Shown piece after piece: positions 23,581 through 37,018 of a stretch of 64,000 nt of DNA; the stretch's first letter is position 1; every line of letters begins with the position of its first letter. The notes under the pieces are model-generated. The model was not told where the DNA came from and searched no databases. It saw nothing but the letters and a program-made list of their open reading frames with translations. The stretch lies in NCBI RefSeq assembly GCF_988243305.1, contig NZ_OZ547139.1, one strand, 5' to 3'. This stretch comes from a plasmid. The translations under genes were made by a program, and so were the position numbers.

Positions 23581-23745
23581 AATACCTCATTGAATTCTAC
23601 CATCGGCGAGGTTTGAAAGCCAGCAGCGAAGGGCCTGGCAGGCAGAGCAATTGAATCGTGCCGGGCATCATGTAAAATCACCCGAATAGCCTGGGTCGAT
23701 TTTCTCCGGTTCAGCATGGCGATTTTGACATTATTGGGAGGGCAT

Positions 23746-24360: not shown

Positions 24361-24386
24361 TTAAAAAGGGGCGCTTACAGCGCCCC
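24361..24386 (-). terminator. Rho-independent terminator after the 46-aa ORF
   Basis: 7-bp GC stem ggggcgc/gcgcccc (24368-24386) followed on the minus strand by T5. Confidence 0.7.
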
Positions 24387-24401
24387 TGAGACAGTTACAG
24401 A

Positions 24402-24542
24402 TTACATCGCGGCTTCTTTAATCCGCCGGAACACTGCCAACCAGAAACGGAAGTGATCCCATTGCGCTGCGTTCATCGGATGCGACTTTGTTTGCACTCC
24501 GTTTGCGACATCTTCAGCATAGTGTATAATCCACAACGGCAT
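24402..24542 (-). CDS. Unannotated 46-aa ORF (MPLWIIHYAEDVANGVQTKSHPMNAAQWDHFRFWLAVFRRIKEAAM)
   Basis: GAGGT 6 nt before ATG 24542 and a strong terminator 15 nt after the TAA. Below the ORF-track cutoff. The plus-strand 88-aa ORF opposite it looks spurious. Confidence 0.45.
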   Translation of the reverse strand: MPLWIIHYAEDVANGVQTKSHPMNAAQWDHFRFWLAVFRRIKEAAM

Positions 24543-24605
24543 TTTGAACCTCACAATTTAAATTGCCTACCCAGCCGGATTGTTGGCGCAATCCGGCACC
24601 TTTTC
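24537..24605 (+). ncRNA. Candidate ~70-nt cis-antisense RNA covering the SD/start of the 46-aa ORF
   Basis: Promoter TTGCGA (24503-24508), 16 nt spacer, TATAAT (24525-24530). Hairpin gccggatt-GUUGGCGC-aatccggc (24574-24597) followed by TTTT. The loop carries the UUGGCG motif. Confidence 0.4.
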
Positions 24606-24611
24606 TGGATT

Positions 24612-25148
24612 TCAATGATTCATCACCTCCTTCACATCCAGAACCAAAAAGTTATCGTTAGCGTGACGCTGCCCTACGATGAAAACAGCATCAAAGCGAC
24701 TTACTGCAACTACGTTTAGTTTGCCTGTAACCTCCTTTCCGTTGATGTTGATGGTTTCATAGAGCACCTCGTATTCCTTCGCAGAATCGGAATACTTCTG
24801 CTCTTTCCAGTTTTCTATCTGTGCGATCAGCTCCGGGGCCAGCTGCTGACGAACACGGTTTAGTTCATAGTCACGATTGAGAATCAGGCGGTAATCTTTA
24901 ATTAGCTGGTTGATAACCTTGTTCTCATCCCACTCGGATAGCAGTGGGCACTGTTCGCACTGTATAACACCATCTTTAATCAGTTTTTCTCTGATGCCAT
25001 TAACAACCTGTACAGCACTTAATTCACTGTCGTAGTTCTTTTTAATTTCATCGCTTCCCGGATATACCATAGCGACATCATTAAAATGGCTTACGATTAA
25101 TTCTGACACAATAAGGGTATAAACCTCATAAGGGTATAAGGTCGCCAT
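24612..25148 (-). CDS. Leading-region protein of unknown function (178 aa, AT-rich gene)
   Basis: ORF with its own copy of the conserved leading-region promoter core. No motif recognised. Confidence 0.6.
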   Translation of the reverse strand: MATLYPYEVYTLIVSELIVSHFNDVAMVYPGSDEIKKNYDSELSAVQVVNGIREKLIKDGVIQCEQCPLLSEWDENKVINQLIKDYRLILNRDYELNRVRQQLAPELIAQIENWKEQKYSDSAKEYEVLYETININGKEVTGKLNVVAVSRFDAVFIVGQRHANDNFLVLDVKEVMNH

Positions 25149-25207
25149 AATATTCTCTCCACGTTATTTACAGAGCGTTTTAATCAATATCCACTTTTAA
25201 ACTTCAC

Positions 25208-25241
25208 GATTATTATACGTCTAATGAGCCATTGCAGGCAA
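25208..25241 (-). promoter_or_regulatory. Leading-region cassette copy 1 (promoter core only)
   Basis: Minus strand: TTGCCT, 18 nt spacer (..atggctcattagacg), TATAAT. Same core as the other copies but with a different UTR. Confidence 0.6.
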
Positions 25242-25280
25242 GAAAAAAATGCCCCTTTTCGAGGCATATTTTTAACCGGT

Positions 25281-25592
25281 TTACCACTCCCAAACGGTCA
25301 GTTCTGGCACCTGTTCTGCATCCCGGTCAAACCAAATCCAGTCGAACCCGGCACCATTTAACGCGGCTATATTATCCAAAGCACTTGCACTGATCCCCGC
25401 CCTGGCTAATTCCACACGCCATTGTTCAGTAGCAGAAATACGCAATATCCACCCATAGCGATTTTTCTCGATCCAGAACAAACCTTGACCGGACAAGTCA
25501 TCGTTACAGACCTTATCCAGTAGCTCCGCGTCTTCTTTTTTTACATGGCCGGTACTGACGACAGCCACCCGATATTGTTCACTGATATTCAT
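25281..25592 (-). CDS. Leading-region protein of unknown function (103 aa), co-transcribed with ssb
   Basis: ORF with a G-rich Shine-Dalgarno, 58 nt after the ssb stop. Confidence 0.6.
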   Translation of the reverse strand: MNISEQYRVAVVSTGHVKKEDAELLDKVCNDDLSGQGLFWIEKNRYGWILRISATEQWRVELARAGISASALDNIAALNGAGFDWIWFDRDAEQVPELTVWEW

Positions 25593-25650
25593 ACTCCCCC
25601 CCCTTCAGGGTTGGCGGCCCGCGCCCTGCGGGCCGTTCTAACTCAAATAC

Positions 25651-26085
25651 TCACTGCGGGTAATCATTCATATCCGGGAACGGCGGTTCATCATGATTTT
25701 CAGTGCCTCCCAGACCTTCAGCACTGGTGTTACGTGGCCCAGCTCCCGGCAGCATCTGCATTTCGCCGTTATTATCGATCACAATTTCCTTGTTACTGCG
25801 CATTTTGCCGTCTGTCCCTTGCCATTTGTTATTACGAATGCGCCCGACAAAATACAGCATCATACCCTTTTTGAAGTACTTCCCAGCTGCTTCGGCCTTC
25901 TTTCCAAAAATGACAACATCATGCCATTCCGTTTCTTTTTGCTCCTTCCCTTCGTTGTCGCTGTAGCTGATTTCTGTAGCCAGCGTCAGGCTCGCAATGG
26001 CCGTTCCGTTTGGGGTGTAACGCACTTCTGCATCTTTGCCAGCACGCCCCATCAGAATCACTTTGTTTTCGCCACGTTTCCACAT
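25651..26085 (-). CDS. ssb: Plasmid single-stranded DNA-binding protein (144 aa from MWKRGENKV)
   Basis: OB-fold N-terminus (NKVILMGRAGKDAEVRYTPNGTAIASLTLAT...WHDVVIFGK), Gly/Asn-rich linker and an acidic Pro-Phe tip (DEPPFPDMNDY). Confidence 0.85.
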   Translation of the reverse strand: MWKRGENKVILMGRAGKDAEVRYTPNGTAIASLTLATEISYSDNEGKEQKETEWHDVVIFGKKAEAAGKYFKKGMMLYFVGRIRNNKWQGTDGKMRSNKEIVIDNNGEMQMLPGAGPRNTSAEGLGGTENHDEPPFPDMNDYPQ

Positions 26086-26156
26086 AATACACCTCATATA
26101 TTTGATGTTTATCAGTAAAAAATGGGAGGATTAAGGGGGATTTCTCCCCCTCTTTA

Positions 26157-26378
26157 TCAGTAAAACTTCACGTTCGATTTCAGGGCTTTTTCAAAGTCTT
26201 TTACAAAGGAATTTGCAAAAGTGTAATCACGATGAATAAGCTGTTTTGTTTTAGGATTTCGCCACTCAACCTGCACTGATTCGGCTGAGTATTCGATCAC
26301 CTCGATTTGATTTTTTACACCGAGATAATCAGCAATTGCCATTACGGCATTCACTTTTTTTTGGTCTGCTTCTTTCAT
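26157..26378 (-). CDS. Leading-region protein of unknown function (73 aa)
   Basis: ORF immediately preceded by a full promoter+UTR cassette. Confidence 0.6.
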   Translation of the reverse strand: MKEADQKKVNAVMAIADYLGVKNQIEVIEYSAESVQVEWRNPKTKQLIHRDYTFANSFVKDFEKALKSNVKFY

Positions 26379-26383
26379 TTCAA

Positions 26384-26468
26384 CTCCTTCGCCAGTCGGG
26401 GCGCTACCGCGAAAGACTCAACTGCCTTTCGATGTAATAATTATACGTCTAATGAGCCACTTTATCAA
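26384..26468 (-). promoter_or_regulatory. Leading-region cassette copy 2 (promoter + UTR + SD)
   Basis: Minus strand: TTGATA, 18 nt spacer, TATAAT, then atcgaaagg..tctttcg, then ggtagcgccccgactggcgaaggag, then ATG. Confidence 0.65.
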
Positions 26469-26497
26469 CTCATCAGACGTATTTTTTTATTTAATTT

Positions 26498-26513
26498 TGT
26501 TCAAATATGAACA
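26498..26513. promoter_or_regulatory. 16-bp palindrome TGTTCA-AATA-TGAACA (copy 1 of 2)
   Basis: Perfect inverted repeat, identical (as reverse complement) to 41080-41095. Confidence 0.4.
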
Positions 26514-26531
26514 TTTATTGATGCTAAATAT

Positions 26532-26816
26532 CTAACATAATGGCTTGAATTTGGCCTTGTTGTAGGTGATCCGGTAGTCTTTGCACTTCCCGTTCTGCCG
26601 CAGGAACTCCAGCGAGACAACGTTAGCAGCGGCAAAATTGATGCACATAATGCTTTCCAGCGCCTCGAACAGGTCGGCCCCATTGGCAAGCGGAAACCAC
26701 AGATCGTTGTCGCTACCGCTTAATTTTTCATGCAGACAGAAATGCACAGCACGCACGCCGCCAAATTCCGTAACCAGCACCGTATTGCTGGCGCGAATAT
26801 CAGTTAGTGTTAACAT
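26532..26816 (-). CDS. Leading-region protein of unknown function (94 aa from MLTLTDIRAS), co-transcribed with klcA
   Basis: The start is moved to ATG 26816, which lies after the post-klcA hairpin and a GGGGGA Shine-Dalgarno. Confidence 0.55.
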   Translation of the reverse strand: MLTLTDIRASNTVLVTEFGGVRAVHFCLHEKLSGSDNDLWFPLANGADLFEALESIMCINFAAANVVSLEFLRQNGKCKDYRITYNKAKFKPLC

Positions 26817-26859
26817 TTTTCCCCCTGTCAGTATTGGCCCCCTCGCGGGGGCCGCCGTT

Positions 26860-27300
26860 TCAGTCAATCGCGCGGTAAATCAAACCGGCTTCGGCGTGCT
26901 GGTCGGCATATAATTTGAGTTTTTCCTGCTGGGTGATCAGCATGTCGCAGATGTGCTGATAGCCTTCTTCATGTGCGTGCCAGATCATGCGGTTCAGGGT
27001 GAACAGGGTCAGCACGATACCGGTAGCTTCTGCGGACAATTCCCCTTCGAACCAGTTACCGCTAACCGATACCGTGAAGCGCTCTGCGCTCAGTGGGTAC
27101 ATGAAGCCGCTACCGCAAGACAGTTCGACGAACTCCCAGGAACCGCCTTGATAATCGGCGCAGAGAGAACGTGCGTGGTTGTAGACACCGGCCTCACCTG
27201 TGAGATACCAGGCGCCGAACAGGCGTGGCAGAAAGGCCATGCGGCGGTTATTGGGGATAATGCGTGCAGTGATGGCGGGTTGATTCAGTTCAGTAGACAT
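26860..27300 (-). CDS. klcA: KlcA/ArdB-family antirestriction protein (146 aa)
   Basis: Colinear with RK2 KlcA as remembered (..FLPRLFG..GE.GVY...LC..Y.GG.W.F..., GELSAEATGIVLTLF, C-terminal IYRAID). Confidence 0.85.
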   Translation of the reverse strand: MSTELNQPAITARIIPNNRRMAFLPRLFGAWYLTGEAGVYNHARSLCADYQGGSWEFVELSCGSGFMYPLSAERFTVSVSGNWFEGELSAEATGIVLTLFTLNRMIWHAHEEGYQHICDMLITQQEKLKLYADQHAEAGLIYRAID

Positions 27301-27308
27301 TTTCTGTA

Positions 27309-27395
27309 CTCCTGCGCCAGTCGGGGCGCTACCGTCGAAAGACCGGATTGCCTTTCGATGTGATTATTATACGTCTAATGAGCCATACCAATCAA
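27309..27395 (-). promoter_or_regulatory. Leading-region cassette copy 3 (full) driving klcA
   Basis: TTGATT, 18 nt spacer, TATAAT, then aatcacATCGAAAGGCAATCCGGTCTTTCGACGGTAGCGCCCCGACTGGCGCAGGAG, then ATG. Confidence 0.7.
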
Positions 27396-27500
27396 GCAAA
27401 ATATTCCCGCCTACCTGAATATTTTCAGGCGGTAGAACTCTTTCCCCTGTCCATTTTTGGGGGCAGGATCACGCCTGCCCCCTTCTGATTCACATGATTA

Positions 27501-27806
27501 CTATGACTTTGTTTCAGCGTTAAAGTGTACGGCTGCGATCCTGACCAACGGGATCACCGCGCTTTCCTCATCGAGCACACGAAAATTTATCGCTTCCCCC
27601 AGGTGCATCAGGTTAGCGATAAAATCAACGATGATTTCGGAAACCGGGTGTCCGTCGCAGTCCTGCTCATTCAGGCGCGCAAACAGCGCCAGCGCCTTAG
27701 CGGCCTTGATTGCCCGCTCTTCGTTTTCTTCGTCCATACTGCCGAAACACCATTGCCCCTTTTCAATCAGGGCCAGCGTGTCGTAATAGGCTTCATTCTG
27801 GGACAT
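27501..27806 (-). CDS. Leading-region protein of unknown function (101 aa)
   Basis: ORF preceded by the conserved translation-initiation module only. Confidence 0.6.
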   Translation of the reverse strand: MSQNEAYYDTLALIEKGQWCFGSMDEENEERAIKAAKALALFARLNEQDCDGHPVSEIIVDFIANLMHLGEAINFRVLDEESAVIPLVRIAAVHFNAETKS

Positions 27807-27813
27807 GTTTTTT

Positions 27814-27840
27814 CCTCCTGCGCCAGTCGGGGCGCTACCG
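27814..27840 (-). promoter_or_regulatory. Leading-region cassette copy 4 (translation-initiation module only)
   Basis: cggtagcgccccgactggcgcaggagg follows directly after the upstream stop codon. No promoter part is present. Confidence 0.6.
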
Positions 27841-27867
27841 TGAAAGTTCGCTGCGTTACTGCATGAA

Positions 27868-28278
27868 TTAGCCGTTAATCACCTTCGTGATGCACTCCAG
27901 CGCCTCAGACTCCTGCGGATAAAGTCGGCGTGCAGCTCCTTCACCAGACTGGATTTCTTCCAGCCGGATAAACTGCGCCGCCAGCGCCACGACTTTTTGC
28001 AGCGCCTCGGCATTGACCTCTATCTTTCGATCGCGGGCGGCATCTTCGCGCACCTGCTTTGCCAGGCTCCAGACGGTATCTTTTCCGACGCCATAACGGC
28101 TGTGTGAACTGCATTCCGCGATTTCTGCCAGAACGGCTTCGGCCTCATCGTCAGTGAGGTTCATATCACTGGTGCAGTCATGGACATCTTCAGCAGTCCA
28201 GATCAGAAGGCTGATCCGCTGCTGTGGTTCAAAACTATCGAGAAGCCTTGCGCAAATTTCATTTACGTTACCGTGCAT
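27868..28278 (-). CDS. Leading-region protein (136 aa), possibly DUF1380-like
   Basis: LLIWTAEDVHDC...LTDDEAEAVLAEIAE resembles the plasmid leading-region DUF1380 family (memory, low certainty). Confidence 0.55.
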   Translation of the reverse strand: MHGNVNEICARLLDSFEPQQRISLLIWTAEDVHDCTSDMNLTDDEAEAVLAEIAECSSHSRYGVGKDTVWSLAKQVREDAARDRKIEVNAEALQKVVALAAQFIRLEEIQSGEGAARRLYPQESEALECITKVING

Positions 28279-28285
28279 TGTAAAA

Positions 28286-28370
28286 CTCCTGCGCCAGTCG
28301 GGGCGCTGCCGCGAAAGACCGGATGCCTTTCGATGTGATTATTATACGTCTAATGAGCCATATCAATCAA
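28286..28370 (-). promoter_or_regulatory. Leading-region cassette copy 5 (full)
   Basis: Same architecture as the other full copies. Its -35 TTGATT overlaps the last codons of the upstream gene. Confidence 0.65.
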
Positions 28371-28599
28371 GCGATTTTTCACGCTCATAGCTGCTACAGG
28401 CAACGCTGTAGCAGTTTGCATCCAGTTCTGAAGGCCAGTCGTCACGCCCGCAACCTGACAGCAGGCAGGCGCTGAGGTGCCCAGGGCGATAGTCGAGATG
28501 CTGGCATGAGGCGCAAAGGTCATCATCTGAGATTGAGCGGCCTGCACAGATAGGCGGCGCGCCATCAGTGGGAATTTCTCGAATATGCAGCGTTGTCAC
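28363..28599 (-). CDS. Cys-rich leading-region protein (78 aa, GTG start)
   Basis: GTG 28599 lies 7 nt after the conserved AGGAG module. 8 Cys residues in 78 aa. The alternative 28350-28565 frame lacks the module. Confidence 0.5.
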   Translation of the reverse strand: MTTLHIREIPTDGAPPICAGRSISDDDLCASCQHLDYRPGHLSACLLSGCGRDDWPSELDANCYSVACSSYEREKSLD

Positions 28600-28607
28600 T
28601 TTTTTTA

Positions 28608-28634
28608 CTCCTGCGCCAGTCGGGGCGCTGCCGG
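28608..28634 (-). promoter_or_regulatory. Leading-region cassette copy 6 (translation-initiation module only)
   Basis: ccggcagcgccccgactggcgcaggag. Confidence 0.6.
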
Positions 28635-28670
28635 TTAGCGATGCAGGGGGCTGTCGCCCCCTGCGGCGGT

Positions 28671-28784
28671 TCAGTCCTTACCCTTATCCTTCATGACTTT
28701 AATCAGCCCGGTAATGGCTGTAATGAGGGCGGCCACGGCCGTGATAATCTGAGGGAGGTTATGGAGGATTTCAGAAGAGGTCAT
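28671..28784 (-). CDS. Unannotated 37-aa single-TM peptide (MTSSEILHNLPQIITAVAALITAITGLIKVMKDKGKD)
   Basis: ATG 28784 lies after AGGTG, with TGA at 28671-28673. It has its own copy of the conserved promoter core and a hairpin at 28643-28664 downstream. Below the ORF-track cutoff. Confidence 0.45.
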   Translation of the reverse strand: MTSSEILHNLPQIITAVAALITAITGLIKVMKDKGKD

Positions 28785-28812
28785 AATGCACCTGTAAGGC
28801 TGTTTAGGAAGG

Positions 28813-28864
28813 TACTGATTTGAATCAGTAAAAACATTATACGTCTAACGAGCCATATATGCAA
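28813..28864 (-). promoter_or_regulatory. Promoter (cassette copy 7, core only) with an 18-bp palindrome at the predicted +1
   Basis: TTGCAT (28864-28859), 17 nt spacer, TATAAT (28841-28836). Palindrome TACTGATT-TG-AATCAGTA at 28813-28830. Confidence 0.55.
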
Positions 28865-28896
28865 GCAAAAAAACGCCCCTTGTAGGGGCGCTGTGA

Positions 28897-29127
28897 TTAT
28901 TTTACATACTGCCAGACATGCGGCGGGATCTTATCCCAGATGCGTCCCGATGCCAGCTCTGCGCGGCGATGGTCGGCGGCAGCCTCAAAAGCCTCGGTGT
29001 CCTCCGGCGGCACCTGTCCACGATCCCGCATGGATTCGTACATTTTTTCCAGTGTGTCCGGGTTACGACTGCGCCGAAAACGGAGAAGGTAAAAACGCCT
29101 CCGTGCCTGATAAACTGTTTCCGCCAT
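28897..29127 (-). CDS. Small protein (76 aa) with C-terminal AADHRRAELASGRIWDKIP motif
   Basis: ORF whose motif is shared with the 14231-14443 product. Confidence 0.55.
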   Translation of the reverse strand: MAETVYQARRRFYLLRFRRSRNPDTLEKMYESMRDRGQVPPEDTEAFEAAADHRRAELASGRIWDKIPPHVWQYVK

Positions 29128-29224
29128 GTATCTGCGTCCTGAGCGCCTTGTTATTTCGCATAGTATTCACGTTTTGGTTGAATAAGTCTTCGACTATACG
29201 CCCCTTGCGGGGCGTAGCAGGCGG

Positions 29225-29563
29225 TCAGCCCCAGGTGCTGTAAAAATGGCTTTCGTTAGGATCGGTCTTATAAGCCTGTTCGTACTCGTCAATGCTGACA
29301 GACGGATGCTCATGGTTTTCACAGATGCGACGGGTCACGGGTTCGCCTTTAAAGTCGTTCAGTACCGGCTTTAACTCGCCAGACATTGCACTGTCTGCTT
29401 TCACCTGCTGCGCAGCGATGCGGCGCAGTACGGCGGTTTTCTTACCGCGCAGGGCGATCACCTGATAAAAACAGGTATTTGTCTGCTCATAACCCCAGCT
29501 GGAAACAAAAACATCACCAAGAGAAACGGAGCCGTTACGGAACTGAAGGGATTGAATAGCCAT
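29225..29563 (-). CDS. Leading-region protein of unknown function (112 aa)
   Basis: ORF preceded by a full cassette. Confidence 0.6.
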   Translation of the reverse strand: MAIQSLQFRNGSVSLGDVFVSSWGYEQTNTCFYQVIALRGKKTAVLRRIAAQQVKADSAMSGELKPVLNDFKGEPVTRRICENHEHPSVSIDEYEQAYKTDPNESHFYSTWG

Positions 29564-29571
29564 GTTTATTA

Positions 29572-29657
29572 CTCCTGCGCCAGTCGGGGCGCTACCGCGA
29601 AAAGCCTCATTGCCTTTCGATGTAATTATTATGCGTCTAATGAGCCATATTAATCAA
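29572..29657 (-). promoter_or_regulatory. Leading-region cassette copy 8 (full; -10 is CATAAT)
   Basis: TTGATT, 18 nt spacer, CATAAT, then a UTR variant (tcgaaaggcaatgaggcttttcg), then ggtagcgccccgactggcgcaggag. Confidence 0.6.
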
Positions 29658-29752
29658 GCAATAAATACATGCCCGGCATGATTTTCTCAGGCCGGGGAAT
29701 ACTTCCTTTCCCTGTTTATATTTCAGGCCGCAAATGCGGCCTGCCGTCTGCA

Positions 29753-30613
29753 TTACACGCGAGGGGGTAACATTCCGGGATAGTGACTGGCAACCAGATT
29801 ATTGATCTTCTCAACCAGCTCCGGGCGTTTAAACGTAATGTGCGCGCTGCCCTTTTTGTAATATCGCACGCTGAAGTAATCACACTCGAACACCTTACCG
29901 TTGAACTGGTTTTCACTGAAAAAGGCATCCAGTTTGGCACCGTCAGAAACACGGTAATCAGGCACGTTACGCCCGTCCAGCACGTAGAACGGCCGCGCCA
30001 GATCGTCAATTTTGGTGTGCCCGTCTGAGCTGAAGCGCACCCAGCCACTGCGCCAGACATCGAGCAACGGCGCGATGATGATACGCTTGCCAAACATGCA
30101 GGGGTTATTGGTTTTATAATCCCACGACAGGGATTTAAAGATATCAATCAGCCCTTGCGTGAAGGTATCGGCCTTACTTGCGTTCAGGTGCCGGAACGTG
30201 CTCATAACGTTCTCCAGCGTTATCGGCGGCATTTCTTCGCCTGCCACCTGCCGATCCCATTCCTGACGTTGTTTGTTGCTCATCAGCGTATACATGCCGG
30301 TTTCCGACATCAGCCGATCCCAGATTTTTCCGTCGATAACGCGGGAAATAGCCGTTTCGGCCTGGTCTGGTCTGGTGTCGCTCCATTTGATCGCGCTCTC
30401 TACGGCTTTGTCGTAGTCATACAGGTACTGACAGCCTCCGGCCTGCTGCATCAGATCGCGCGCTTTTCGCAGCTTGTCTATGCCGTCGAGATAGACGCGA
30501 ATACCTTCATTCCGCAACGAGATAATGCGCTCAATAGCAATGGACGGGATCACTTCACCGCCATGCTGGCAGGACATCAGATCGACCGACGGGAGAGTTT
30601 TTTCAGATGACAT
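29753..30613 (-). CDS. Leading-region protein of unknown function (286 aa from MSSEKTLPSVD)
   Basis: The start is set to ATG 30613 just after the conserved module. The long ORF start at 30682 would overlap the module. No catalytic motif recognised. Confidence 0.6.
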   Translation of the reverse strand: MSSEKTLPSVDLMSCQHGGEVIPSIAIERIISLRNEGIRVYLDGIDKLRKARDLMQQAGGCQYLYDYDKAVESAIKWSDTRPDQAETAISRVIDGKIWDRLMSETGMYTLMSNKQRQEWDRQVAGEEMPPITLENVMSTFRHLNASKADTFTQGLIDIFKSLSWDYKTNNPCMFGKRIIIAPLLDVWRSGWVRFSSDGHTKIDDLARPFYVLDGRNVPDYRVSDGAKLDAFFSENQFNGKVFECDYFSVRYYKKGSAHITFKRPELVEKINNLVASHYPGMLPPRV

Positions 30614-30619
30614 TTCAGA

Positions 30620-30645
30620 CTCCTGCGCCATGCGGGGCGCTACCG
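30620..30645 (-). promoter_or_regulatory. Leading-region cassette copy 9 (translation-initiation module, variant loop)
   Basis: cggtagcgccccgcatggcgcaggag. Confidence 0.55.
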
Positions 30646-30685
30646 TAAGGGGTGAACAGGGCTGGCAATGCCAGCCCATCAATGA

Positions 30686-30865
30686 TTATTTGCAGCGCTG
30701 AAGCAGTTTACTGACCTGCTCGGCCAGCGCATACGTGGACGCATACGGGCCACTTAAACGACGGTTAGGGATTTCGTTGAGGGCATACAGGCACGCCTTC
30801 AGCAGCGCATCTTTCTGCGTGTCCAGTTCAGCTTTAAGCTGGGAGGGGGTCAGTGCTTTACTCAT
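30686..30865 (-). CDS. Unannotated 59-aa protein (MSKALTPSQLKAELDTQKDALLKACLYALNEIPNRRLSGPYASTYALAEQVSKLLQRCK)
   Basis: ATG 30865 follows a full cassette; TAA at 30686-30688. One residue below the ORF-track cutoff. Confidence 0.55.
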   Translation of the reverse strand: MSKALTPSQLKAELDTQKDALLKACLYALNEIPNRRLSGPYASTYALAEQVSKLLQRCK

Positions 30866-30874
30866 AATTTGTTA

Positions 30875-30960
30875 CTCCTGCGCCAGTCGGGGCGCTACCG
30901 CGAAAAGCCTCATTGCCTCTCGATGTGATTATTATACGTCTAATGAGCCACATCAATCAA
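30875..30960 (-). promoter_or_regulatory. Leading-region cassette copy 10 (full)
   Basis: TTGATT, 18 nt spacer, TATAAT, then UTR and module. Confidence 0.65.
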
Positions 30961-31015
30961 GCGTTATCTGATTAATTTTCTTTGTTTTTTCCCGGACTCC
31001 TTTCCCTGTAAATTT

Positions 31016-31472
31016 TGCTTTTCAGATCCCCATCAGCCCGATGAAGGTGCTTTGCCGGCATGGTGCAGGGGTTCAGGCATCAGACACTAGCGATAGCCCG
31101 AAACCCCGCAGGGGGTTCGGCGGAGCTGCCAGGCCTTGCCTGGCTAGCGGAGTGTGGCTGACGACTGCCCGACGGGCAGGAGCCGAAGGGGCCCAGAGGT
31201 GTTTTAGTACGGCAGGCCTGCCAGAAAACGCCGGCAACTGAGCAGAAATGAACAGGGAAGACACGCTGTGCGGGCGTCAAAATTAAGTTAACTGGCAGAC
31301 ACCAGGGCGGGATCACATCAGAAAGGGCCAGAATAGGGGGCAGGACTCGTCAAAGTCACAAAAACGATGATGGGTACAGGTTTTTTAAATGCGCGCCCAG
31401 AGAGCGGCTCAGAGCGTTTCAGGGCAATACGGGTTCGATGCCCGTATTGCCCTGCAGGCGGCAACCACCGCG
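31016..31472 (-). other. Hairpin-rich GC-rich non-coding stretch downstream of the DGQHR gene (candidate structured RNA or ssDNA element)
   Basis: No ORF with a credible SD. Perfect 14-bp hairpin cagggcaatacggg/cccgtattgccctg (31421-31455). At least five further short GC stems lie between 31095 and 31225. Confidence 0.3.
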
Positions 31473-32756
31473 TCAGCCTTCAGCTCCGGCCAGATAGCGG
31501 CTTAGCCCCTCACGGGAAGCCAGCACCGACGCTCTGAACTGCGGTTCGCCGTCACCCAGCGCCTTCAGCTTCTCCACGATATTGATCATCGGCGCGGCAG
31601 TACGCTGCTTATAATTCTCGATGTCGGCTGCATATTTCAGTAATGCCATATCACTCGCCTCCTCAGCTGGCAGGTAATCACGCAACCACAGCGCATCTGC
31701 GAACGGATCTATCAGCTTTTGCAACGCTTCAGCCGTTGCTTCGAGCGCCCGCCTGTCGGTTTTGATGGTGCCTGTCTCCGGATCAACACACTTCCCTTCC
31801 CAGCACTCAGGTACAAACGACTCCCGGTAATGAAAACCGTTGTCACCGTTTTCCGCACAGGCCAGTAGGTTCTCGATGCTTTCAGGGGTTCTGTGCCGTA
31901 ACATCCTGGCCGTTGCCATACCGATCGCATTAATCATGATGCCATGCAGTCCCAGCGCCTCCTGACGGTACTCCGCGGCGATATCATCCTGGGCAATATC
32001 ATTCCAGCGCATCGCCTGCGCCCAGGCAGTCCAGAGTCTTTCTGCCATATCACGCTGTTGCGGCGAGGGAATGCTGTTGGCCCGCAGGTTGAGCATTTTT
32101 TTCGTCGCATCGTTCAGCGCTTTAAAGCTGATAAGCCGTGAGCTTTTTGCCGGGACCACGTTGTGTTCAAAATCCACTGTGCCCGCCAGCCCGGTGACGG
32201 TTCGGGCCAGATGCATTGCCAGCTGGTTGACCGGATCATTGTTGTTATATGCCATACTGATCGCCGCTGCCGGTTTGCTCGCGTTGTTATTAATATCAGC
32301 GAAAAACTGCTGGCGTAACTCAAGTGGCAGGCCAACGGTAAGCAATAAGCTGATCGTATCTTCCGTGTTGGAATAATCGCGTACAAATTCAAAAATACCC
32401 AGCGCACGGTGCTGGCCATCGAATAATTTTAAATCAGCGTCCATCGGAATTTTAAGAATACCGACTGCCGGCGAGAGTTCGCTGGGAAGGAATTCAACAT
32501 GACTATCAATATTTCCGGTAATTGACGGCAAAATATAGGGAGCTCGTTTTGATGTTGCGCCGGCAACATAATTCCGTATTTTTTTGGCCCGCGTTTTGTT
32601 CGCTTCTCGCTGGCTGCGATCCATAACATCGCCATCATTGTCCATTGCGAGAATACGACGTAACACGACCATAGGAACCGTCAGCATGTATTGTTCTATG
32701 CCGCCCTGTATTCCGCGTGTGGCCGGGACTCTGAAAAAATAGTTATCAGTATTCAT
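31473..32756 (-). CDS. DGQHR-domain (DndB-like, ParB/Srx superfamily) protein, 427 aa
   Basis: Literal motif KLFDGQHRALG. The upstream RSQREANKTRAKKIRNY and downstream QFFADINNNASKP fit the DndB-like family as remembered. Confidence 0.7.
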   Translation of the reverse strand: MNTDNYFFRVPATRGIQGGIEQYMLTVPMVVLRRILAMDNDGDVMDRSQREANKTRAKKIRNYVAGATSKRAPYILPSITGNIDSHVEFLPSELSPAVGILKIPMDADLKLFDGQHRALGIFEFVRDYSNTEDTISLLLTVGLPLELRQQFFADINNNASKPAAAISMAYNNNDPVNQLAMHLARTVTGLAGTVDFEHNVVPAKSSRLISFKALNDATKKMLNLRANSIPSPQQRDMAERLWTAWAQAMRWNDIAQDDIAAEYRQEALGLHGIMINAIGMATARMLRHRTPESIENLLACAENGDNGFHYRESFVPECWEGKCVDPETGTIKTDRRALEATAEALQKLIDPFADALWLRDYLPAEEASDMALLKYAADIENYKQRTAAPMINIVEKLKALGDGEPQFRASVLASREGLSRYLAGAEG

Positions 32757-32819
32757 AATATTTCCTTCGTATATCCGATACGTTCAGGAAGCACGTTTGC
32801 GCGTCGGTGTTTTGCGCGG

Positions 32820-33086
32820 CTATTTCCAGATCGGCGGTAAGCCGGCATCGATGCATAGGACACACCAGACGGAATACGCGATGTCACTTTCTCCGTTCAC
32901 CCAGCGGCGCACCGTTCTGCCGTTCACGCCAACATGTCGCGCCAGCCCCTCCTGACTGAGGTTGAGCACATTTTCCAGCAGATAGCGGAGTTCATCCCCC
33001 GTCGGCGGGGTCCATTTATCAGCGGGACGGAAACAACTTTCGCGGATCGCGCCCACGTTAAGCGGCACGGTATATTTATTGCCCAT
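32820..33086 (-). CDS. HTH transcriptional repressor, KorC-like (88 aa from MGNKYTV)
   Basis: HTH LSQEGLARHVGVNGRTVRRWVNG. GGAGG before ATG 33086. A KorC-type palindrome lies in the operon promoter. Confidence 0.6.
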   Translation of the reverse strand: MGNKYTVPLNVGAIRESCFRPADKWTPPTGDELRYLLENVLNLSQEGLARHVGVNGRTVRRWVNGESDIAYSVWCVLCIDAGLPPIWK

Positions 33087-33130
33087 AGCAAGCCTCCAGA
33101 GCCGGCCGCACCACTGTGCGGCCGCGGTTA

Positions 33131-33580
33131 TCAAATCAGACCATGTTCAGCAAAAGAGTAAATATCGCTGCCGCCCACAATCAGGTGATCGAGGACTTTG
33201 ACATCAACCATCCCCAGCACCTGCGCCAGACGCTCGGTGATCAGCTTGTCAGCCTGGCTGGGTGCAGTGTTAGCGGAAGGATGGTTATGCGCCAGTACCA
33301 CGGCGGCGGCATTATGATGCAGGGCGCGTTGCAGGACGATACGCGGATGAACGGTGACGCTGCTGATAGTTCCCTTAAACAGTTCTTCAAACGCAATCAC
33401 GCCGTTGTGGCAGTTAAGAAAGAACGCGCAGAATGATTCGCGTGGTTCTGCAGCAAGACGAAACCGCAGTAAGGAACGCGCGGCGTCGGCGCCGGTGATA
33501 AAATCCGTTGTGGTAATTTTACCGGCAATAATGGCGTCCGCCTGGCGGATAATGTTGAGTTCTTCTGCTGAAAATTTCAT
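33131..33580 (-). CDS. radC: RadC-like JAB-domain protein (149 aa)
   Basis: JAMM-type motif VVLAHNHPSANTAPSQAD and C-terminal DHLIVG. Confidence 0.8.
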   Translation of the reverse strand: MKFSAEELNIIRQADAIIAGKITTTDFITGADAARSLLRFRLAAEPRESFCAFFLNCHNGVIAFEELFKGTISSVTVHPRIVLQRALHHNAAAVVLAHNHPSANTAPSQADKLITERLAQVLGMVDVKVLDHLIVGGSDIYSFAEHGLI

Positions 33581-33628
33581 ATATTTCCCTCGTTAGGGGA
33601 CCTGAGCACCATGCCCGGCCACAAATAT

Positions 33629-33657
33629 ATAATAGGACATTTTGTCCTAGATGTAAA
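33629..33657 (-). promoter_or_regulatory. Promoter with embedded 17-bp KorC-type operator
   Basis: TTTACA (33657-33652), 17 nt spacer, TATTAT (33634-33629). The spacer holds the palindrome TAGGACAAAATGTCCTA (33633-33649), which resembles the RK2 OC operator TAGGGCATAATGCCCTA (memory). Confidence 0.55.
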
Positions 33658-33701
33658 TACAGTTAAATATAAAAAAGCCCGATTTAACGGGCTTTTATGG
33701 T

Positions 33702-34064
33702 CTATTTCTGTCCCCCTGCAATAACTTCCAGTTCCGTCTCTGAAAGCATAATTTTCAGGCAGGGTTTGGTACGGCTGAGAAGTTCAATCGACCTCGGATC
33801 GAGGTCCAGGGATTCGCAAAAATCATCTCCGCCACAGGCATCACGCATCCGGTCCCAGAGCTCGTCAAAATCCGTTGTATCCGGATTGAAACCATTGGCG
33901 TAACAGACATTGTGCATCCCATTACTGTTTTTCTCACCTTTCGCCGCCATCACATACACGCCATGATCTTTGACAAAAAGAAGCGGGCAATTAAAACGCT
34001 TAACTTCAGCAATAACGACGTTGAGCATAGGATCAGTAAAAACAAGTTCTGATTGCATGGTCAT
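33702..34064 (-). CDS. Leading-region protein of unknown function (120 aa)
   Basis: ORF followed by a strong terminator (aaaagcccgttaaatcgggctttttt on the minus strand). Confidence 0.6.
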   Translation of the reverse strand: MTMQSELVFTDPMLNVVIAEVKRFNCPLLFVKDHGVYVMAAKGEKNSNGMHNVCYANGFNPDTTDFDELWDRMRDACGGDDFCESLDLDPRSIELLSRTKPCLKIMLSETELEVIAGGQK

Positions 34065-34085
34065 AGTGTATTTACTCCCTGAAAG

Positions 34086-34349
34086 CTATTTGTTGACCGC
34101 AGCGGCGGTGAGAATGTCAGAAAGCGACCCCAGCAGGTATAATTCGGTGAGCTCGCCTGTTTCATTCAGAAGAAATAGCCCTGCAGGTCGGCCATTATGA
34201 AAAATAATGGCTTCATGCGATTGATGTAATTCACACTGACACAGCGAGAAATAAATAAGTGACCATTCAGGGGAAATAACGGTTTTATTGCCATGTTCCC
34301 GGATATAGCGGGCAACATCAGCCTGTTGCTGAGAATTGAGAGCAGTCAT
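34086..34349 (-). CDS. Leading-region protein of unknown function (87 aa)
   Basis: ORF preceded by a full cassette. Confidence 0.6.
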   Translation of the reverse strand: MTALNSQQQADVARYIREHGNKTVISPEWSLIYFSLCQCELHQSHEAIIFHNGRPAGLFLLNETGELTELYLLGSLSDILTAAAVNK

Positions 34350-34356
34350 AAGGTGA

Positions 34357-34443
34357 CTCCTGCGCCGGTCGGGGCGCTACCGTCGAAAGACCGGATTGCC
34401 TTTCGATGTGATTATTATACGTCTAACGAGCCATATAAATCAA
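34357..34443 (-). promoter_or_regulatory. Leading-region cassette copy 11 (full, near-identical to the klcA copy)
   Basis: TTGATT, 18 nt spacer, TATAAT, then ATCGAAAGGCAATCCGGTCTTTCGACGGTAGCGCCCCGACCGGCGCAGGAG. Confidence 0.7.
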
Positions 34444-34466
34444 GTTAATTTTGTTATTTTCCTGGT

Positions 34467-34877
34467 TTAAGGAGACTCTTTCCCCTGTAAATTTTGCATC
34501 ACAAGCGCACCGTTCGGGCGCTGCAGGCGAATAATATCGTTCTGGCGAGCGTCTTTTTCCCGGATGATCCGCCAGGTTTCGGTGACGGCGCCGGCTGGCT
34601 GATACAGTCTGACCTTCACCTCGGAACGCTCTGCAGACAGCACAATGCAGCCTTTCTCATCTTGTGCAGCTGCGTGCCGGGCTTCATCTTTATCCCGCGG
34701 GCAGTCATCAAATCCTGATATTCGGACCGGATGGCCATCGATATCAACCTGATAGCCGGGCGAAATCACGGGCACGGGCTGTGGCACATTCGGGAAATAA
34801 TCAGCCAGATCACACCCTGTCAGGGCTACGGGCACAAGGCAGGCATACAGCATTAACATTCGGCGTGTGGTGATCAT
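34467..34877 (-). CDS. Lipoprotein of unknown function (136 aa)
   Basis: Lipobox VALTGC. Confidence 0.6.
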   Translation of the reverse strand: MITTRRMLMLYACLVPVALTGCDLADYFPNVPQPVPVISPGYQVDIDGHPVRISGFDDCPRDKDEARHAAAQDEKGCIVLSAERSEVKVRLYQPAGAVTETWRIIREKDARQNDIIRLQRPNGALVMQNLQGKESP

Positions 34878-34905
34878 AAAGGGTCCTCTCTGGTCGCCGC
34901 GGGCC

Positions 34906-35385
34906 TTATTTCACCTTCTCAACCAGCTGCAGTGAAGGATGCTCACCGGCCAGCAGTAACAGGAAATTGAATTCCCCGGTCTTGAGCTTTACGCCGCGCT
35001 GAGCAGCCTTTTCTTTGGTCTGCCATGACGCCGGTTTATAGCCAAACAGCGCTGCAATTTCAGCGTGCTTCAGCCCCAGCGCCAGACGCAGGCGGCGAAC
35101 GTCTTCGGCCGTGGCGGGATCTTTGACCATATCATCCGGACTGAATGCCCTGTTCAGGCGGTAATCAGGATGCACGCCGGCGATCAGCATCAGCATGTTA
35201 TATTCGCCTGGGCGAAGACTGGTCTTGTTGTACTGGCTGAGATCGTCGCTGATAGCTTCCTTACGCTGCCAGGCGCGCAGTTCGTACCCCATGACGGCCC
35301 CTAATGCGGTTTCAGTCATGCCCATTTTTTCCCGGAGCGTCTTCACTGTTTCCGGCTGCGGAACGACGCTAACCATCTTAATCAT
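34906..35385 (-). CDS. Tandem double-HTH DNA-binding protein (159 aa)
   Basis: Internal duplication: TLREKMGMTETALGAVMGYELRAWQRKE...GEYNMLMLIAGVHP versus RRLRLALGLKHAEIAALFGYKPASWQTKE...GEFNFLLLLAGEHP. Confidence 0.6.
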   Translation of the reverse strand: MIKMVSVVPQPETVKTLREKMGMTETALGAVMGYELRAWQRKEAISDDLSQYNKTSLRPGEYNMLMLIAGVHPDYRLNRAFSPDDMVKDPATAEDVRRLRLALGLKHAEIAALFGYKPASWQTKEKAAQRGVKLKTGEFNFLLLLAGEHPSLQLVEKVK

Positions 35386-35884
35386 TACCCTTCTCCCAGA
35401 AGTCTGAATTCAGAAAAATTTTCACCTGGCGTGTGCGGGGATAGTCCTGGTGCTTCAGCCCCTCCCGCGTGTCAGACAGGTACTGCGTTTCCTGCTGCAC
35501 CTTGTTGATTTTGCCATTCCATTTGCGGGCCAGCGCCCGGTAACTCCCGTTCTCCAGCTGATAAACTTCAAACGTATACTTGTTCGGACCGCTCCAGCCT
35601 TCGTTGTAATAGACCTGTTTCATAGGATCTGCCTGATCGATGCGCCCCGTAAACATGACATCCCGGCTGCATTGCCTGAACCAGTAACCGCGGGGCATAG
35701 CCGGTGGCCGGTCGCTTATTTCCCGTCTGGATAGCGTGCCGAAAGGCTGTGAGCGCAGGTGACAACCTGATCTCAGGTCAATCGGGCATGACGTGTTGTG
35801 CAGGGACCAGCGCCGCTGCCGCAGACAATGGCTCAGGGTGATCACAGGAACGACACGGGAAACGAACAGGGGGAATGATTGCAT
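35378..35884 (-). CDS. Leading-region protein of unknown function (168 aa)
   Basis: ATG 35884 follows cassette copy 12. The stop overlaps the next gene's start. Confidence 0.5.
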   Translation of the reverse strand: MQSFPLFVSRVVPVITLSHCLRQRRWSLHNTSCPIDLRSGCHLRSQPFGTLSRREISDRPPAMPRGYWFRQCSRDVMFTGRIDQADPMKQVYYNEGWSGPNKYTFEVYQLENGSYRALARKWNGKINKVQQETQYLSDTREGLKHQDYPRTRQVKIFLNSDFWEKGND

Positions 35885-35891
35885 GGTTTTA

Positions 35892-35961
35892 CTCCTTCGC
35901 CAGTCGGGGCGCTACCGAAAAATGAGCCTTGATAATACGACGAATGAGCCATATAAATCAA
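35892..35961 (-). promoter_or_regulatory. Leading-region cassette copy 12 (shortened UTR variant)
   Basis: TTGATT, 18 nt spacer, TATTAT, then ..cggtagcgccccgactggcgaaggag. Confidence 0.6.
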
Positions 35962-36001
35962 GTTAAAAATCAGGCGGCAGAGTTTCTGCCGCTGCTGTAG
36001 G

Positions 36002-36565
36002 TCAGTACCGTGGAGCCACGTCCTTTCCTTCGCCCCATAAACGGGAAAACTCGTTCACGTAGGCTTCAGTTACTGCAGGCGCGCCGCTGATCAGCACCAC
36101 ATTTTCCGCATTACGACTGTCTGCGCTGGCGCTGAAGTTAAACGAGCCGGTCAATACGGCGCGGCGGTCAAAGACCATGAATTTATCATGCATGGCCTCG
36201 TAGTTATCGTTGATCCGCACCGCCACGCGGTTATTGGCCAGAAAGTTCACTTCGGTGTACCGGTTGTCGTTCGCTTTGCGATCGGCCACCACCACCACCG
36301 ATACGCCCCGTTTTTTTGCGGCACGCAACGCGCCGGCAACAGGACGACTGGTCAGGCTGTACGCGGCAACCAGAATCTCATGCTGCGCGTGGTCGATTGA
36401 ATCCAGAACCAGATTTAATGCGGTCCCGCCGGGTGAAAACCCGGTTTTCACTTCAGTCGCAGCTTGCGCCTGGACATCGCCGGCAATATTGCCGGCCGCT
36501 GTTACCGGGTTTGCTGCCACGGCGCCGGCGATGAGGGTCAGGGTTAACAGCACATATTTTTTCAC
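36002..36565 (-). CDS. nuc: Nuc, PLD-family (HKD) periplasmic endonuclease
   Basis: Signal peptide plus HKD motif MHDKFMVFD...GSFNFS. Confidence 0.85.
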   Translation of the reverse strand: MKKYVLLTLTLIAGAVAANPVTAAGNIAGDVQAQAATEVKTGFSPGGTALNLVLDSIDHAQHEILVAAYSLTSRPVAGALRAAKKRGVSVVVVADRKANDNRYTEVNFLANNRVAVRINDNYEAMHDKFMVFDRRAVLTGSFNFSASADSRNAENVVLISGAPAVTEAYVNEFSRLWGEGKDVAPRY

Positions 36566-36574
36566 GCAGCCCCC

Positions 36575-37018
36575 TTAATCATCATCCGGGAACAGATGCT
36601 GGACGTTCTTACGGGTTTCTTCCAGATTCCTATCCTCCGGTGCGGCCGGTTCGGGAGTCACGGCGGGACTGTTTTCCGGCGCAGCGCCGCCTGCCGGCGA
36701 CACCGTATTGCTGCCACCGCCGGTGGCCTGCAGAAACGCCTCAACCAGGCGTGCCATCTCTCCTGTATCCTGCTGCGGCAGCGTACTGCTGATGATCCGC
36801 TGAATATCCTGCATCGAGGTGCTCTCCGTCAGAAATTCAGCGATCAGGAACGGCAGGCGTTCGTCTTGTTTCATCAACGCGGCACCACAGAGCATCATGG
36901 CGCGCATCGCGCGGCCACGCTCTTTCTGAGGCAGTTTCTCAAGAAAGCCGTCTGCTACCCGGTCCGCCGCATTGCGCTCCGGGTAGATATAAAACGAGCA
37001 CTTACGGTTATCAGTCAT
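36575..37018 (-). CDS. parR: ParR-like centromere-binding adaptor (147 aa)
   Basis: The N-terminus resembles R1 ParR (..LPQKERGRAMRAMMLCGAAL..). Lies directly after parM. Confidence 0.65.
   Translation of the reverse strand: MTDNRKCSFYIYPERNAADRVADGFLEKLPQKERGRAMRAMMLCGAALMKQDERLPFLIAEFLTESTSMQDIQRIISSTLPQQDTGEMARLVEAFLQATGGGSNTVSPAGGAAPENSPAVTPEPAAPEDRNLEETRKNVQHLFPDDD

Follow-up and report, generated by a model that had tools for sequence, protein, structure and literature searches.

The window examined here is a 64,000-nucleotide (nt) stretch of a plasmid (contig NZ_OZ547139.1, assembly GCF_988243305.1), taken at its full length, and our subject is one promoter-plus-leader cassette that is reused in it before about 20 establishment genes of the plasmid leading region. 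An 11.2-kb stretch of the window is 100% identical to pNDM-HK (NC_019063) and pNDM-OM, both IncL/M plasmids, and the same stretch is present at 95-99% identity in well over a thousand plasmids of Klebsiella, Enterobacter and Escherichia, pOXA-48 types among them. The plasmid is a resistance plasmid of the IncM, pNDM-HK/pOXA-48 type; OXA-48 travels mainly on IncL/M plasmids, on which NDM-1 and CTX-M-3 are found as well. According to the pNDM-HK annotation, the region is bounded by partition and nuc genes on one side and by the relaxase end, with the origin of transfer (oriT), on the other. The nick sequence ACATCTTG/T, taken from PMC8125031, matches once in this area, on the plus strand at 23562-23570; this identifies the plus strand as the one that is transferred and places the leading region toward higher coordinates. 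All cassette-driven genes lie on the minus strand and have the transferred strand as their template, as a first-pass annotation of this DNA had proposed, and the 12 cassette sites are all found within about 12.4 kb of the nick site.

Cassettes were mapped by inspecting the 150 nt upstream of each start codon and by a combined module scan. With up to three mismatches allowed, the promoter core TGGCTCATTAGACGTATAAT was found in nine copies (0 expected, 100 shuffles) and the 3' module GGTAGCGCCCCGACTGGCGCAGGAG in 10 copies (0 expected in shuffled sequence), all on the minus strand, which confirms the 12 sites of the first-pass annotation. On the minus strand, the promoter half of a full copy reads TTGATT, 18 nt ending in ATGGCTCATTAGACG, TATAAT and aatcac; the leader half reads ATCGAAAGGC-loop-GYCTTTCGA (hairpin 1), cGGTA, GCGCC-CCGACT-GGCGC (hairpin 2), the Shine-Dalgarno sequence AGGAG, 5-9 nt and ATG. 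The description of a modular unit made of promoter, 5' untranslated region and Shine-Dalgarno sequence also held: promoter and leader precede the starts at 34349, 30865, 29563, 28278, 27300 and 26378, the promoter only those at 28784 and 25148, and the 3' module only those at 30613, 28599 and 27806. The sites, with the two genes behind cassette 1, are as follows.

35885..35961, minus strand: cassette 1, with -35 box TTGATT, spacer TGGCTCATTCGTCG and weak -10 box TATTAT; hairpin 2 and AGGAG present, hairpin 1 missing
35378..35884, minus strand: orf19; C-terminal ~80 amino acids (aa) ArdR-like, N-terminal half poorly conserved
34906..35385, minus strand: orf20; two Xre-type helix-turn-helix (HTH) domains in tandem; proposed repressor of the nine cassette promoters
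34350..34443, minus strand: cassette 2, full (promoter, hairpin 1, hairpin 2, Shine-Dalgarno sequence); drives an 87-aa gene and a DUF3085 gene
30866..30960, minus strand: cassette 3, full; drives a 59-aa gene and DUF4942
30614..30644, minus strand: hairpin 2 and Shine-Dalgarno module alone, loop CCGCAT; intergenic, before DUF4942 (start 30613)
29564..29657, minus strand: cassette 4, full, -10 box CATAAT; drives a 112-aa gene and an Hha-like gene
28785..28864, minus strand: cassette 5, promoter core only, -35 box TTGCAT, 17-nt spacer, own leader; before a 37-aa hydrophobic open reading frame (ORF)
28600..28632, minus strand: hairpin 2 and Shine-Dalgarno module alone, before a GTG start at 28599
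28279..28370, minus strand: cassette 6, full, hairpin-1 loop 1 nt shorter; drives DUF1380
27807..27839, minus strand: hairpin 2 and Shine-Dalgarno module alone, before a 101-aa gene (start 27806), with a remnant of the hairpin-1 3' arm, aactttcac, upstream
27301..27395, minus strand: cassette 7, reference full copy; drives klcA/ardB
Parts of cassette 7, minus strand: -35 box 27390-27395; spacer motif 27372-27385; -10 box 27366-27371; hairpin 1 27335-27359; hairpin 2 and AGGAG 27309-27333
26379..26481, minus strand: cassette 8, full, -35 box TTGATA, 17-nt spacer; drives a 73-aa gene, ssb and DUF5983
25149..25241, minus strand: cassette 9, promoter core only, -35 box TTGCCT, own leader; drives the 178-aa gene nearest oriT

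Cassette 1 drives orf19-orf20 and probably orf21. This copy, before the start at 35884, had been described as full; it has a diverged spacer and the -10 box TATTAT, and it lacks the TCGAAAG...CTTTCGA palindrome of hairpin 1. The 18-nt spacer that had been given for the promoter is present in most copies, but it is 17 nt at 26378 and 28784, and the distance between the Shine-Dalgarno sequence and the start codon has to be widened from 5-8 to 5-9 nt. The driven proteins were also more readily recognised than had been thought (only KlcA/ArdB and SSB had been named): in addition to these two they include an Hha-like protein and the domains DUF4942, DUF1380, DUF3085 and DUF5983. In a consensus promoter scan the cassette copies were among the top-ranked matches, and they are predicted to be double-strand sigma-70 promoters. 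Since terminator-like hairpins are present just upstream of several of them, the region reads as a string of separate transcription units.

The 37-aa hydrophobic ORF behind cassette 5 (MTSSEILHNLPQIITAVAALITAITGLIKVMKDKGKD, window 28671-28784) has its own long leader and is kept in pOXA-48 and in two further relatives (L003 and L007, see below). It may encode a small membrane peptide and is a candidate for a toxic function; we considered the dqlB toxin and rejected it, the published dqlB being located between repA and trbC.

The relatives used for comparison were pOXA-48 (L010), a Klebsiella MOBP/MPF_I plasmid (L003), a K. oxytoca relative (L007), an Erwinia aeris relative (L016) and the pKPX-1 module (L011). 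Cassettes occupy matching positions in pOXA-48, L003, L007 and L016, and cassettes are also present in pKPX-1, where the klcA cassette is 69% identical to that of the window and klcA itself 59%. Orf20 is 85% identical in L007 and 88% in L016. Because matching positions are found in pOXA-48 and in more distant relatives, the repeats are old, and recent local duplication in this one molecule, the outcome that would have spoken against the first-pass annotation, does not account for them.

Shuffling between copies has left some traces. The loop of the klcA cassette is AATCCGGTC in the window and in pOXA-48 but the neighbours' AATGAGGCT in L003, klcA of these plasmids being 98% identical. The block from DGQHR to DUF4942 is missing from L007, where a deletion endpoint falls at a cassette, and the copies reduced to hairpin 2 retain remnants of the hairpin-1 3' arm. 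A role of the cassettes as recombination seams, also suggested by the first-pass annotation, is thus plausible, with modest support from the swapped hairpin-1 variants and the deletion endpoints. A further reading gives the repeats a chiefly structural part, as sites of recombination or as leftovers of cassette shuffling, and no special regulatory one. The truncated copies with their remnants, and a gene content that varies between cassettes among relatives with endpoints at cassettes (L007), would fit it. However, promoter and Shine-Dalgarno sequence are near consensus at every copy, the copies stop 5-9 nt before start codons, and the design is kept in plasmid families whose cassette sequences cannot be aligned; we therefore regard a purely structural role as highly improbable.

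The most constrained part of the promoter is its spacer. The nine promoter copies, within 11 kb, share the 14-nt motif TGGCTCATTAGACG, which adjoins the -10 box TATAAT. Among 28 distinct promoter copies from four plasmids, this motif varied as little as the -10 box, and clearly less than the -35 box or the six bases that follow the -10 box. Ordinary sigma-70 spacers carry no sequence constraint; for this reason we regard the spacer motif as an operator-like part of the cassette, and its conservation suggests that it is an operator. A looser search for the motif returned only the nine sites and one inverted copy, at 26468-26481 on the plus strand. The inverted copy flanks the -35 box of the 26378 (ssb-operon) promoter (window 26440-26481), so that the motif lies on both sides of this box. 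The double arrangement is kept in pOXA-48, L003 and L007, in the last with matching changes in both copies (ACGTCTAAC...GTTAGACGT).

The leader is about 60 nt long. RNA folding of most full IncL/M copies predicts hairpin 1, a short linker, hairpin 2 and an unpaired AGGAG, and the same two-hairpin fold with a free Shine-Dalgarno sequence is predicted for leaders from Serratia plasmids and for the CUP leaders of the IncN plasmid R46. Hairpin 1 (8-9 bp) begins 7-8 nt downstream of the -10 box, which places it near +1/+2 of the predicted transcript. Hairpin 2 (5 bp) directly abuts AGGAG, and its module is also used alone between genes in operons. The folding energies of single sequences being mostly unremarkable, structure was tested by comparison of 28 distinct leaders from IncL/M-type plasmids, L016, pKPX-1, Serratia plasmids and R46. 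Standard pairs were present in 91% of cells, compared with 26-43% when the partners were slid by one to three columns, and both sides had changed in six pairs (29 cells). The covariation score was 0.287 versus 0.163 in shuffles, a value reached by 0 of 500 shuffles.

Several of these changes are easily followed. The hairpin-1 stem CGAAAG/CTTTCG of the window becomes CGGAAG/CTTCCG and CCAGAAGC/GCTTCTGG in L016, and CGGGAGGC/GCCACCCG in CUP. Different hairpin-1 stems are present together on one plasmid, CGGAAGG and CCAGAAGC in L016, and TCAAGTCA and ATTGAATC in a Serratia plasmid. Hairpin 2, GCGCC/GGCGC in the window, becomes TCGCC/GGCGA in pKPX-1, and CGCC/GGCG or, in another copy, CACC/GGTG in Serratia plasmids. 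Hairpin 1 contains 20 G·U cells versus one A·C cell; it thus pairs on the sense strand only, and is therefore a feature of the RNA and not a DNA palindrome or a structure of the transferred strand.

This result bears on the suggestion of the first-pass annotation that the TCGAAAG-N10-CTTTCGA palindrome, at the predicted transcription start, could be an operator; a dimeric repressor would then recognise it as DNA. The +1 region is a classic operator position, and compensatory changes would also arise if half-sites co-evolved with a dimeric protein. However, an excess of G·U over A·C in the stems is sensible only for sense-strand RNA, the loops vary in sequence and in length, unrelated stems coexist on one plasmid, and the palindrome is absent from the copy in front of the regulator operon and from the two promoter-only copies. 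We consider it very unlikely that the palindrome is the operator.

The two hairpins are reminiscent of the 5' untranslated region of E. coli ompA, reportedly described as a stabiliser by Emory, Bouvet and Belasco in 1992. In both, a hairpin lies a few nt from the 5' end (predicted in the cassettes) and a second one just upstream of an exposed Shine-Dalgarno sequence; the cassette leader is half as long and unrelated in sequence, and an effect on stability would hold by analogy. Most likely, hairpin 1 would protect the 5' end of the mRNA like the ompA 5' hairpin, and hairpin 2 would keep the Shine-Dalgarno sequence single-stranded whatever gene comes next. The leader would then give each downstream gene the same stable, well-translated mRNA start, as a naturally standardised, host-independent expression module of 60 nt.

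Around hairpin 2, a CGG two bases before the stem and a CCG that opens its loop (for example 27309-27337) are kept despite the stem changes, in IncL/M, pKPX-1 and Serratia plasmids. A small pseudoknot, or a contact with a protein or with the ribosome, is possible. A scan of 23000-37000 against Rfam (E <= 1) gave no match on the cassettes; its two matches in this interval, to a microRNA family and, below threshold, to rimP at the korC promoter, were both taken as chance.

The first-pass annotation had also proposed early expression with the entering strand as template. In one alternative model the repeats act on the incoming single strand, as promoters of the Frpo/ssi type (F, ColIb-P9) or as priming signals, before the complementary strand is made. 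The likeness is that of a leading region in which the transferred strand is the template of all driven genes and establishment genes are expressed early; the cassettes contain small hairpins, and related IncI1 plasmids use single-strand promoters (PMC12672017). However, Frpo/ssi elements imitate a duplex promoter by means of a long imperfect hairpin of about 300 nt, whereas the stems of the cassettes are 5-9 bp and there is no inverted partner to put the -35 and -10 boxes in duplex: none was found for the promoter core in the window, where the sole inverted copy is that of the 14-nt spacer motif at 26468-26481. In addition, the G·U pairs of hairpin 1 on the sense strand would turn into A·C mismatches on the transferred strand. 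Action on the single strand is thus most improbable; the transferred strand offers the promoters no complementary partner, their orientation would not permit expression of the cassettes from single-stranded DNA, and a burst of expression would have to follow second-strand synthesis.

The first-pass annotation had compared the cassettes with the CUP repeats, and the analogy is apt and closer than had been claimed. The CUP repeats and the ArdK/ArdR regulon of the IncN plasmids pKM101/R46 were reportedly described by Delver and Belogurov in 1997 (as cited in PMC6289460); ArdK, of the KorA/TrfB family, binds a 13-nt site in the CUP repeat. We compared the regions upstream of ccgAI, ardA, ccgD, ardB and ccgC of R46 with the IncL/M cassettes. 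In both systems the leading region contains several direct repeats, each of which stops shortly before a start codon, and these drive anti-restriction genes and genes of unknown function. In both, the parts come in the same order (promoter, a hairpin at about +1 starting with ATCG, a second GC hairpin, AGGAG), the distance from the -10 box to ATG is 66-67 nt and an ArdR-type protein, here Orf19, is encoded in the regulon. The first CUP hairpin, ATCGGGAGGCAATACCGCCACCCGA, aligns with the IncL/M hairpin ATCGAAAGGCAATCCGGTCTTTCGA without gaps at 17 of 25 positions, the stem differences being compensatory (AA..TT to GG..CC), and the second has a 3' arm, GGCGC, identical to that of IncL/M.

The differences concern the promoter and its repressor. 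The promoter halves are unrelated, the conserved operator-like motif being in the spacer here, and CUP reaches about 150 nt further upstream. ArdK, which in R46 matches Pfam KORA, is absent here (a tblastn search of the window for ArdK/KorA homologues gave noise only); a tandem Xre-type HTH protein is the candidate in its place. ArdK was considered as a relative of Orf20 and is unrelated; the 79-aa gene beside ardR of R46 was ruled out as an HTH relative of Orf20. CUP and the IncL/M cassette are probably relatives that have diverged and come under different repressors, the latter not being a CUP member in the strict sense.

Homology of Orf19 to ArdR is of moderate strength and lies in its C-terminal ~80 aa. 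This domain matched R46 ArdR with a BLASTP E-value of 8e-4, and a profile-profile comparison (hhalign) gave a probability of 83% and an E-value of 8.8e-6 over 74 columns, again moderate. In relatives of orf19 the conserved part is a separate gene of 81-92 aa that overlaps the start of orf20. Some records of orf19-type genes carry the RefSeq label 'sugar ABC transporter substrate-binding protein', which looks wrong, the product being ArdR-like.

Orf20 gave weak matches to Xre/HTH_31 in Pfam, and its AlphaFold model (pLDDT 89.7) has two Xre-type HTH domains. The nearest solved folds are Aca1/2/10, HigA2, C.Kpn2I and HipB, weakly (E 0.2-1 for Aca), that is, repressors that limit strong anti-CRISPR promoters, plus antitoxins. 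Of the three candidate regulators listed in the first-pass annotation, Orf20 (34906-35385) is the best supported. In pOXA-48, deletion of orf20 requires a complementing copy in trans, cells that receive orf20-deleted pOXA-48 elongate and stop dividing, silencing of orf20 leads to plasmid loss, and orf19 is dispensable (PMC12365149, PMC12361523); both groups state that the targets of Orf20 are unknown (PMC12365149, PMC12361523). Orf20 is the likely repressor of the cassette promoters, its binding being inferred from sequence, and control of the cassettes probably explains why it is essential.

Relatives of Orf20 in other plasmids provide a comparison of regulators and spacers. The family of Orf20 is a small one. 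The pKPX-1 homologue (43% identity) accompanies five promoter copies with a spacer of their own, ATGTCTTTTGTCG, and the front copy of the pKPX-1 orf19-orf20 operon has a weak -10 box and lacks hairpin 1, like IncL/M cassette 1. On a Serratia Rep3/VirB plasmid, the homologue (42% identity) accompanies three copies with the spacer ATATCAAACGATG. Tandem-domain regulators are thus paired with non-palindromic spacers in three lineages (IncL/M, pKPX-1, Serratia). Single-domain homologues are encoded by about 4,200 plasmids (tblastn), and the IncX3 protein matches one Orf20 repeat with an hhalign probability of 98.8% (E 7e-17). Single-domain regulators are paired with perfect palindromes beside the -10 box, CCATCAtwTGATGG in IncX3, GGTCAGTTCTGACC in IncI2 and GGTCATTAATGACC in Pantoea. 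The cassettes of these plasmids are located as follows.

L022, 3210-3307 and 5235-5332: IncX3 cassettes
L023, four copies ending at 2900, 3811, 4480 and 5807: IncI2 cassettes, with repeats that reach about 275 nt
L020, 1475-1614: Pantoea cassettes

One HTH domain with a symmetric site, and two fused HTH domains with an asymmetric site, is as direct binding predicts. The pairing of regulator and spacer (each spacer plasmid-specific, its symmetry matching the number of HTH domains) is correlative and points to Orf20-type proteins as the putative ligands. No family other than that of Orf20 accompanied the cassettes in all of the backbones examined (IncL/M, pKPX-1 type, Serratia, IncX3, IncI2 and Pantoea). 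The proteins of about 89 aa encoded upstream of the IncX3 and IncI2 HTH genes had no detectable similarity to Orf19 or ArdR. In Xenorhabdus vietnamensis (L017, 7745-8834) an ArdR-like gene is followed by the gene of a 280-aa protein with four Orf20-type HTH repeats, downstream of which the DNA has been replaced by insertion sequences.

The cassettes could also be co-regulated by a factor other than Orf20 (KorC, a plasmid H-NS-like or Hha-like protein, Orf35, the HTH protein at 40302-40550 or a host factor), or be constitutive promoters with a gene-converted spacer. An Hha-like gene is present inside the regulon, and hairpin-1 variants have visibly been swapped between copies. KorC was rejected as the cassette regulator: its palindrome TAGGACAAAATGTCCTA is found only at its own promoter, at 33633-33649 between the hexamers of the radC-korC-DGQHR operon promoter (window 33629-33657), and Baffert et al. 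report a single KorC site on pOXA-48 (PMC12365149). The radC-korC-DGQHR promoter is unlike the cassettes and interrupts their series. As for the other factors, it is Orf20 relatives alone that accompany the cassettes from backbone to backbone, with spacers that differ from plasmid to plasmid in step with HTH number; and conversion alone leaves unexplained a spacer that is fixed beside a drifting -35 box and a drifting region after the -10 box. We regard these alternatives as rather unlikely, taken together, although less so than those that involve the palindrome, the single strand or a structural role.

The reading that we favour, and hold to be fairly probable, is that the repeats make up the cis-acting part of an establishment regulon of the CUP type, in which Orf20 represses all nine promoters through the spacer and the leader hairpins play the roles proposed above. 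It is based on the repeats and their age, the promoter consensus, the conservation of the spacer, the covariation of the paired bases, the co-occurrence of regulator and cassettes and the homology to ArdR. A common control device for the leading-region genes, as the first-pass annotation had proposed, is supported by these data.

Several observations weigh against this reading. First, the identity of the spacers within a plasmid could partly reflect gene conversion and not selection for an operator. Second, single-sequence folding energies are mostly insignificant compared with shuffles (z-scores of about 0 to -3), and hairpin 2, with three G·U versus four A·C cells, has no strand asymmetry, which leaves room for a role at the DNA level. 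Third, the global alignment of IncL/M and CUP sequences is marginal, with a z-score of 3.7 for klcA versus ardA and about 0 for other pairs; because only one pair reaches 3.7, homology to CUP at the DNA level is probable, not proven. Fourth, the orf20 operon of the Serratia plasmid is preceded by the hairpin 2 and Shine-Dalgarno module only, with no promoter copy, and the Xenorhabdus homologue has no cassettes nearby, in a region disrupted by insertion sequences. Finally, the phenotype of orf20 mutants could stem from other targets.

Repression by Orf20 would operate as follows; that Orf20 binds, when the genes are expressed and how the hairpins affect the stability and translation of the mRNA are all inferred from the DNA. 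Orf20, a single polypeptide with two Xre-type HTH domains, would bind TGGCTCATTAGACG and repress the nine promoters, its own weakened one included. In a fresh recipient, which lacks Orf20, synthesis of the complementary strand would let all the promoters fire at once, giving a burst of KlcA/ArdB, SSB, the Hha-like protein and about 15 proteins of unknown function. Expressed from the weakened cassette 1, Orf20 would then accumulate and shut the promoters down, a negative feedback of the kil-kor, CUP or Aca type. Loss of Orf20 would leave the promoters open, which would lead to the published filamentation and growth arrest with orf20-deleted pOXA-48.

In the kil-kor regulon of the IncP plasmids RK2/RP4, KorA, KorB and KorC repress the kilA, klcA and kle operons, which undergo zygotic induction (PMC7314908). 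By analogy, essential plasmid repressors would in both cases restrain strong promoters of host-harmful genes, klcA included, and expression would burst after entry into a repressor-free cell. In contrast, operators and repressors differ, a KorC-type palindrome being present here only in the radC-korC promoter, and the IncP promoters have no common leader cassette. The Aca repressors of phage anti-CRISPR operons are likewise small Xre-type HTH proteins, encoded in their own operon, that throttle very strong early anti-defence promoters, and the element is inviable without Aca; Orf20 differs in having two HTH domains in one chain and would control nine plasmid promoters, not one.

More tentatively, the Orf20 HTH family and CUP-like cassettes may form one widespread unnamed establishment regulon, common to IncL/M (pOXA-48, pNDM-HK), IncX3, IncI2, pKPX-1-type, Serratia and Pantoea plasmids, of which IncN CUP/ArdK would be a branch with a swapped repressor. 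Orf20 would then be a master repressor of the 'kor' type whose loss kills the host, and the ArdR-like partner or hairpin 2 (CGG-NA-stem-CCGNNN-stem-AGGAG) would add a post-transcriptional layer; we give this extension somewhat less credit than repression of the nine promoters by Orf20. As IncX3, IncI2 and IncN show the same design, the rule may apply generally to leading regions in which single-strand promoters are missing.

As a kind, promoter cassettes repeated along a leading region have been familiar from CUP since the 1990s; the new parts are the pattern across families (IncX3, IncI2, IncL/M) and the assignment of a repressor. Neither the IncL/M cassette nor its leader structure nor the link to Orf20 was described in the reviews and recent pOXA-48 papers that we consulted, the primary papers on pCTX-M3 (Golebiewski 2007) and pEL60 (Foster 2004) being outside this scope. 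Two 2025 studies found orf20 indispensable for pOXA-48 and left its targets open, and the cassette map offers a concrete answer. If repression by Orf20 is true, Orf20 would be the switch for the first minutes of the plasmid in a new host, the map would point to genes that are toxic when unrepressed, and Orf20 or its operator would be a target for forcing plasmid loss.

A natural 47.5-kb deletion variant of pOXA-48 (L021, OW848813) has lost most of the regulon and the relaxase end; orf19-orf20 and cassette 2 are kept in it.

A second repeated element, AAATTTACAGGGAAAGGAGTCCGGG, precedes the -35 box in four cassettes, at a distance of about 30 to 70 nt. Its copies are located as follows.

24328-24352, plus strand: copy in the opposite orientation, downstream of orf35
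30991-31015, minus strand: copy
34474-34494, minus strand: copy, overlapping the 3' end of orf21
29704-29727, minus strand: copy
~27437-27455, minus strand: copy

A terminator-like hairpin usually comes after the element. A 450-nt non-coding stretch (31016-31472) separates the DGQHR gene from cassette 3; it contains a perfect 15-bp hairpin and, as single-stranded DNA, folds unusually well (z-score -2.9). It could serve for initiation on the single strand, or as a single-strand promoter. It aligns weakly with the non-coding DNA after orf35.

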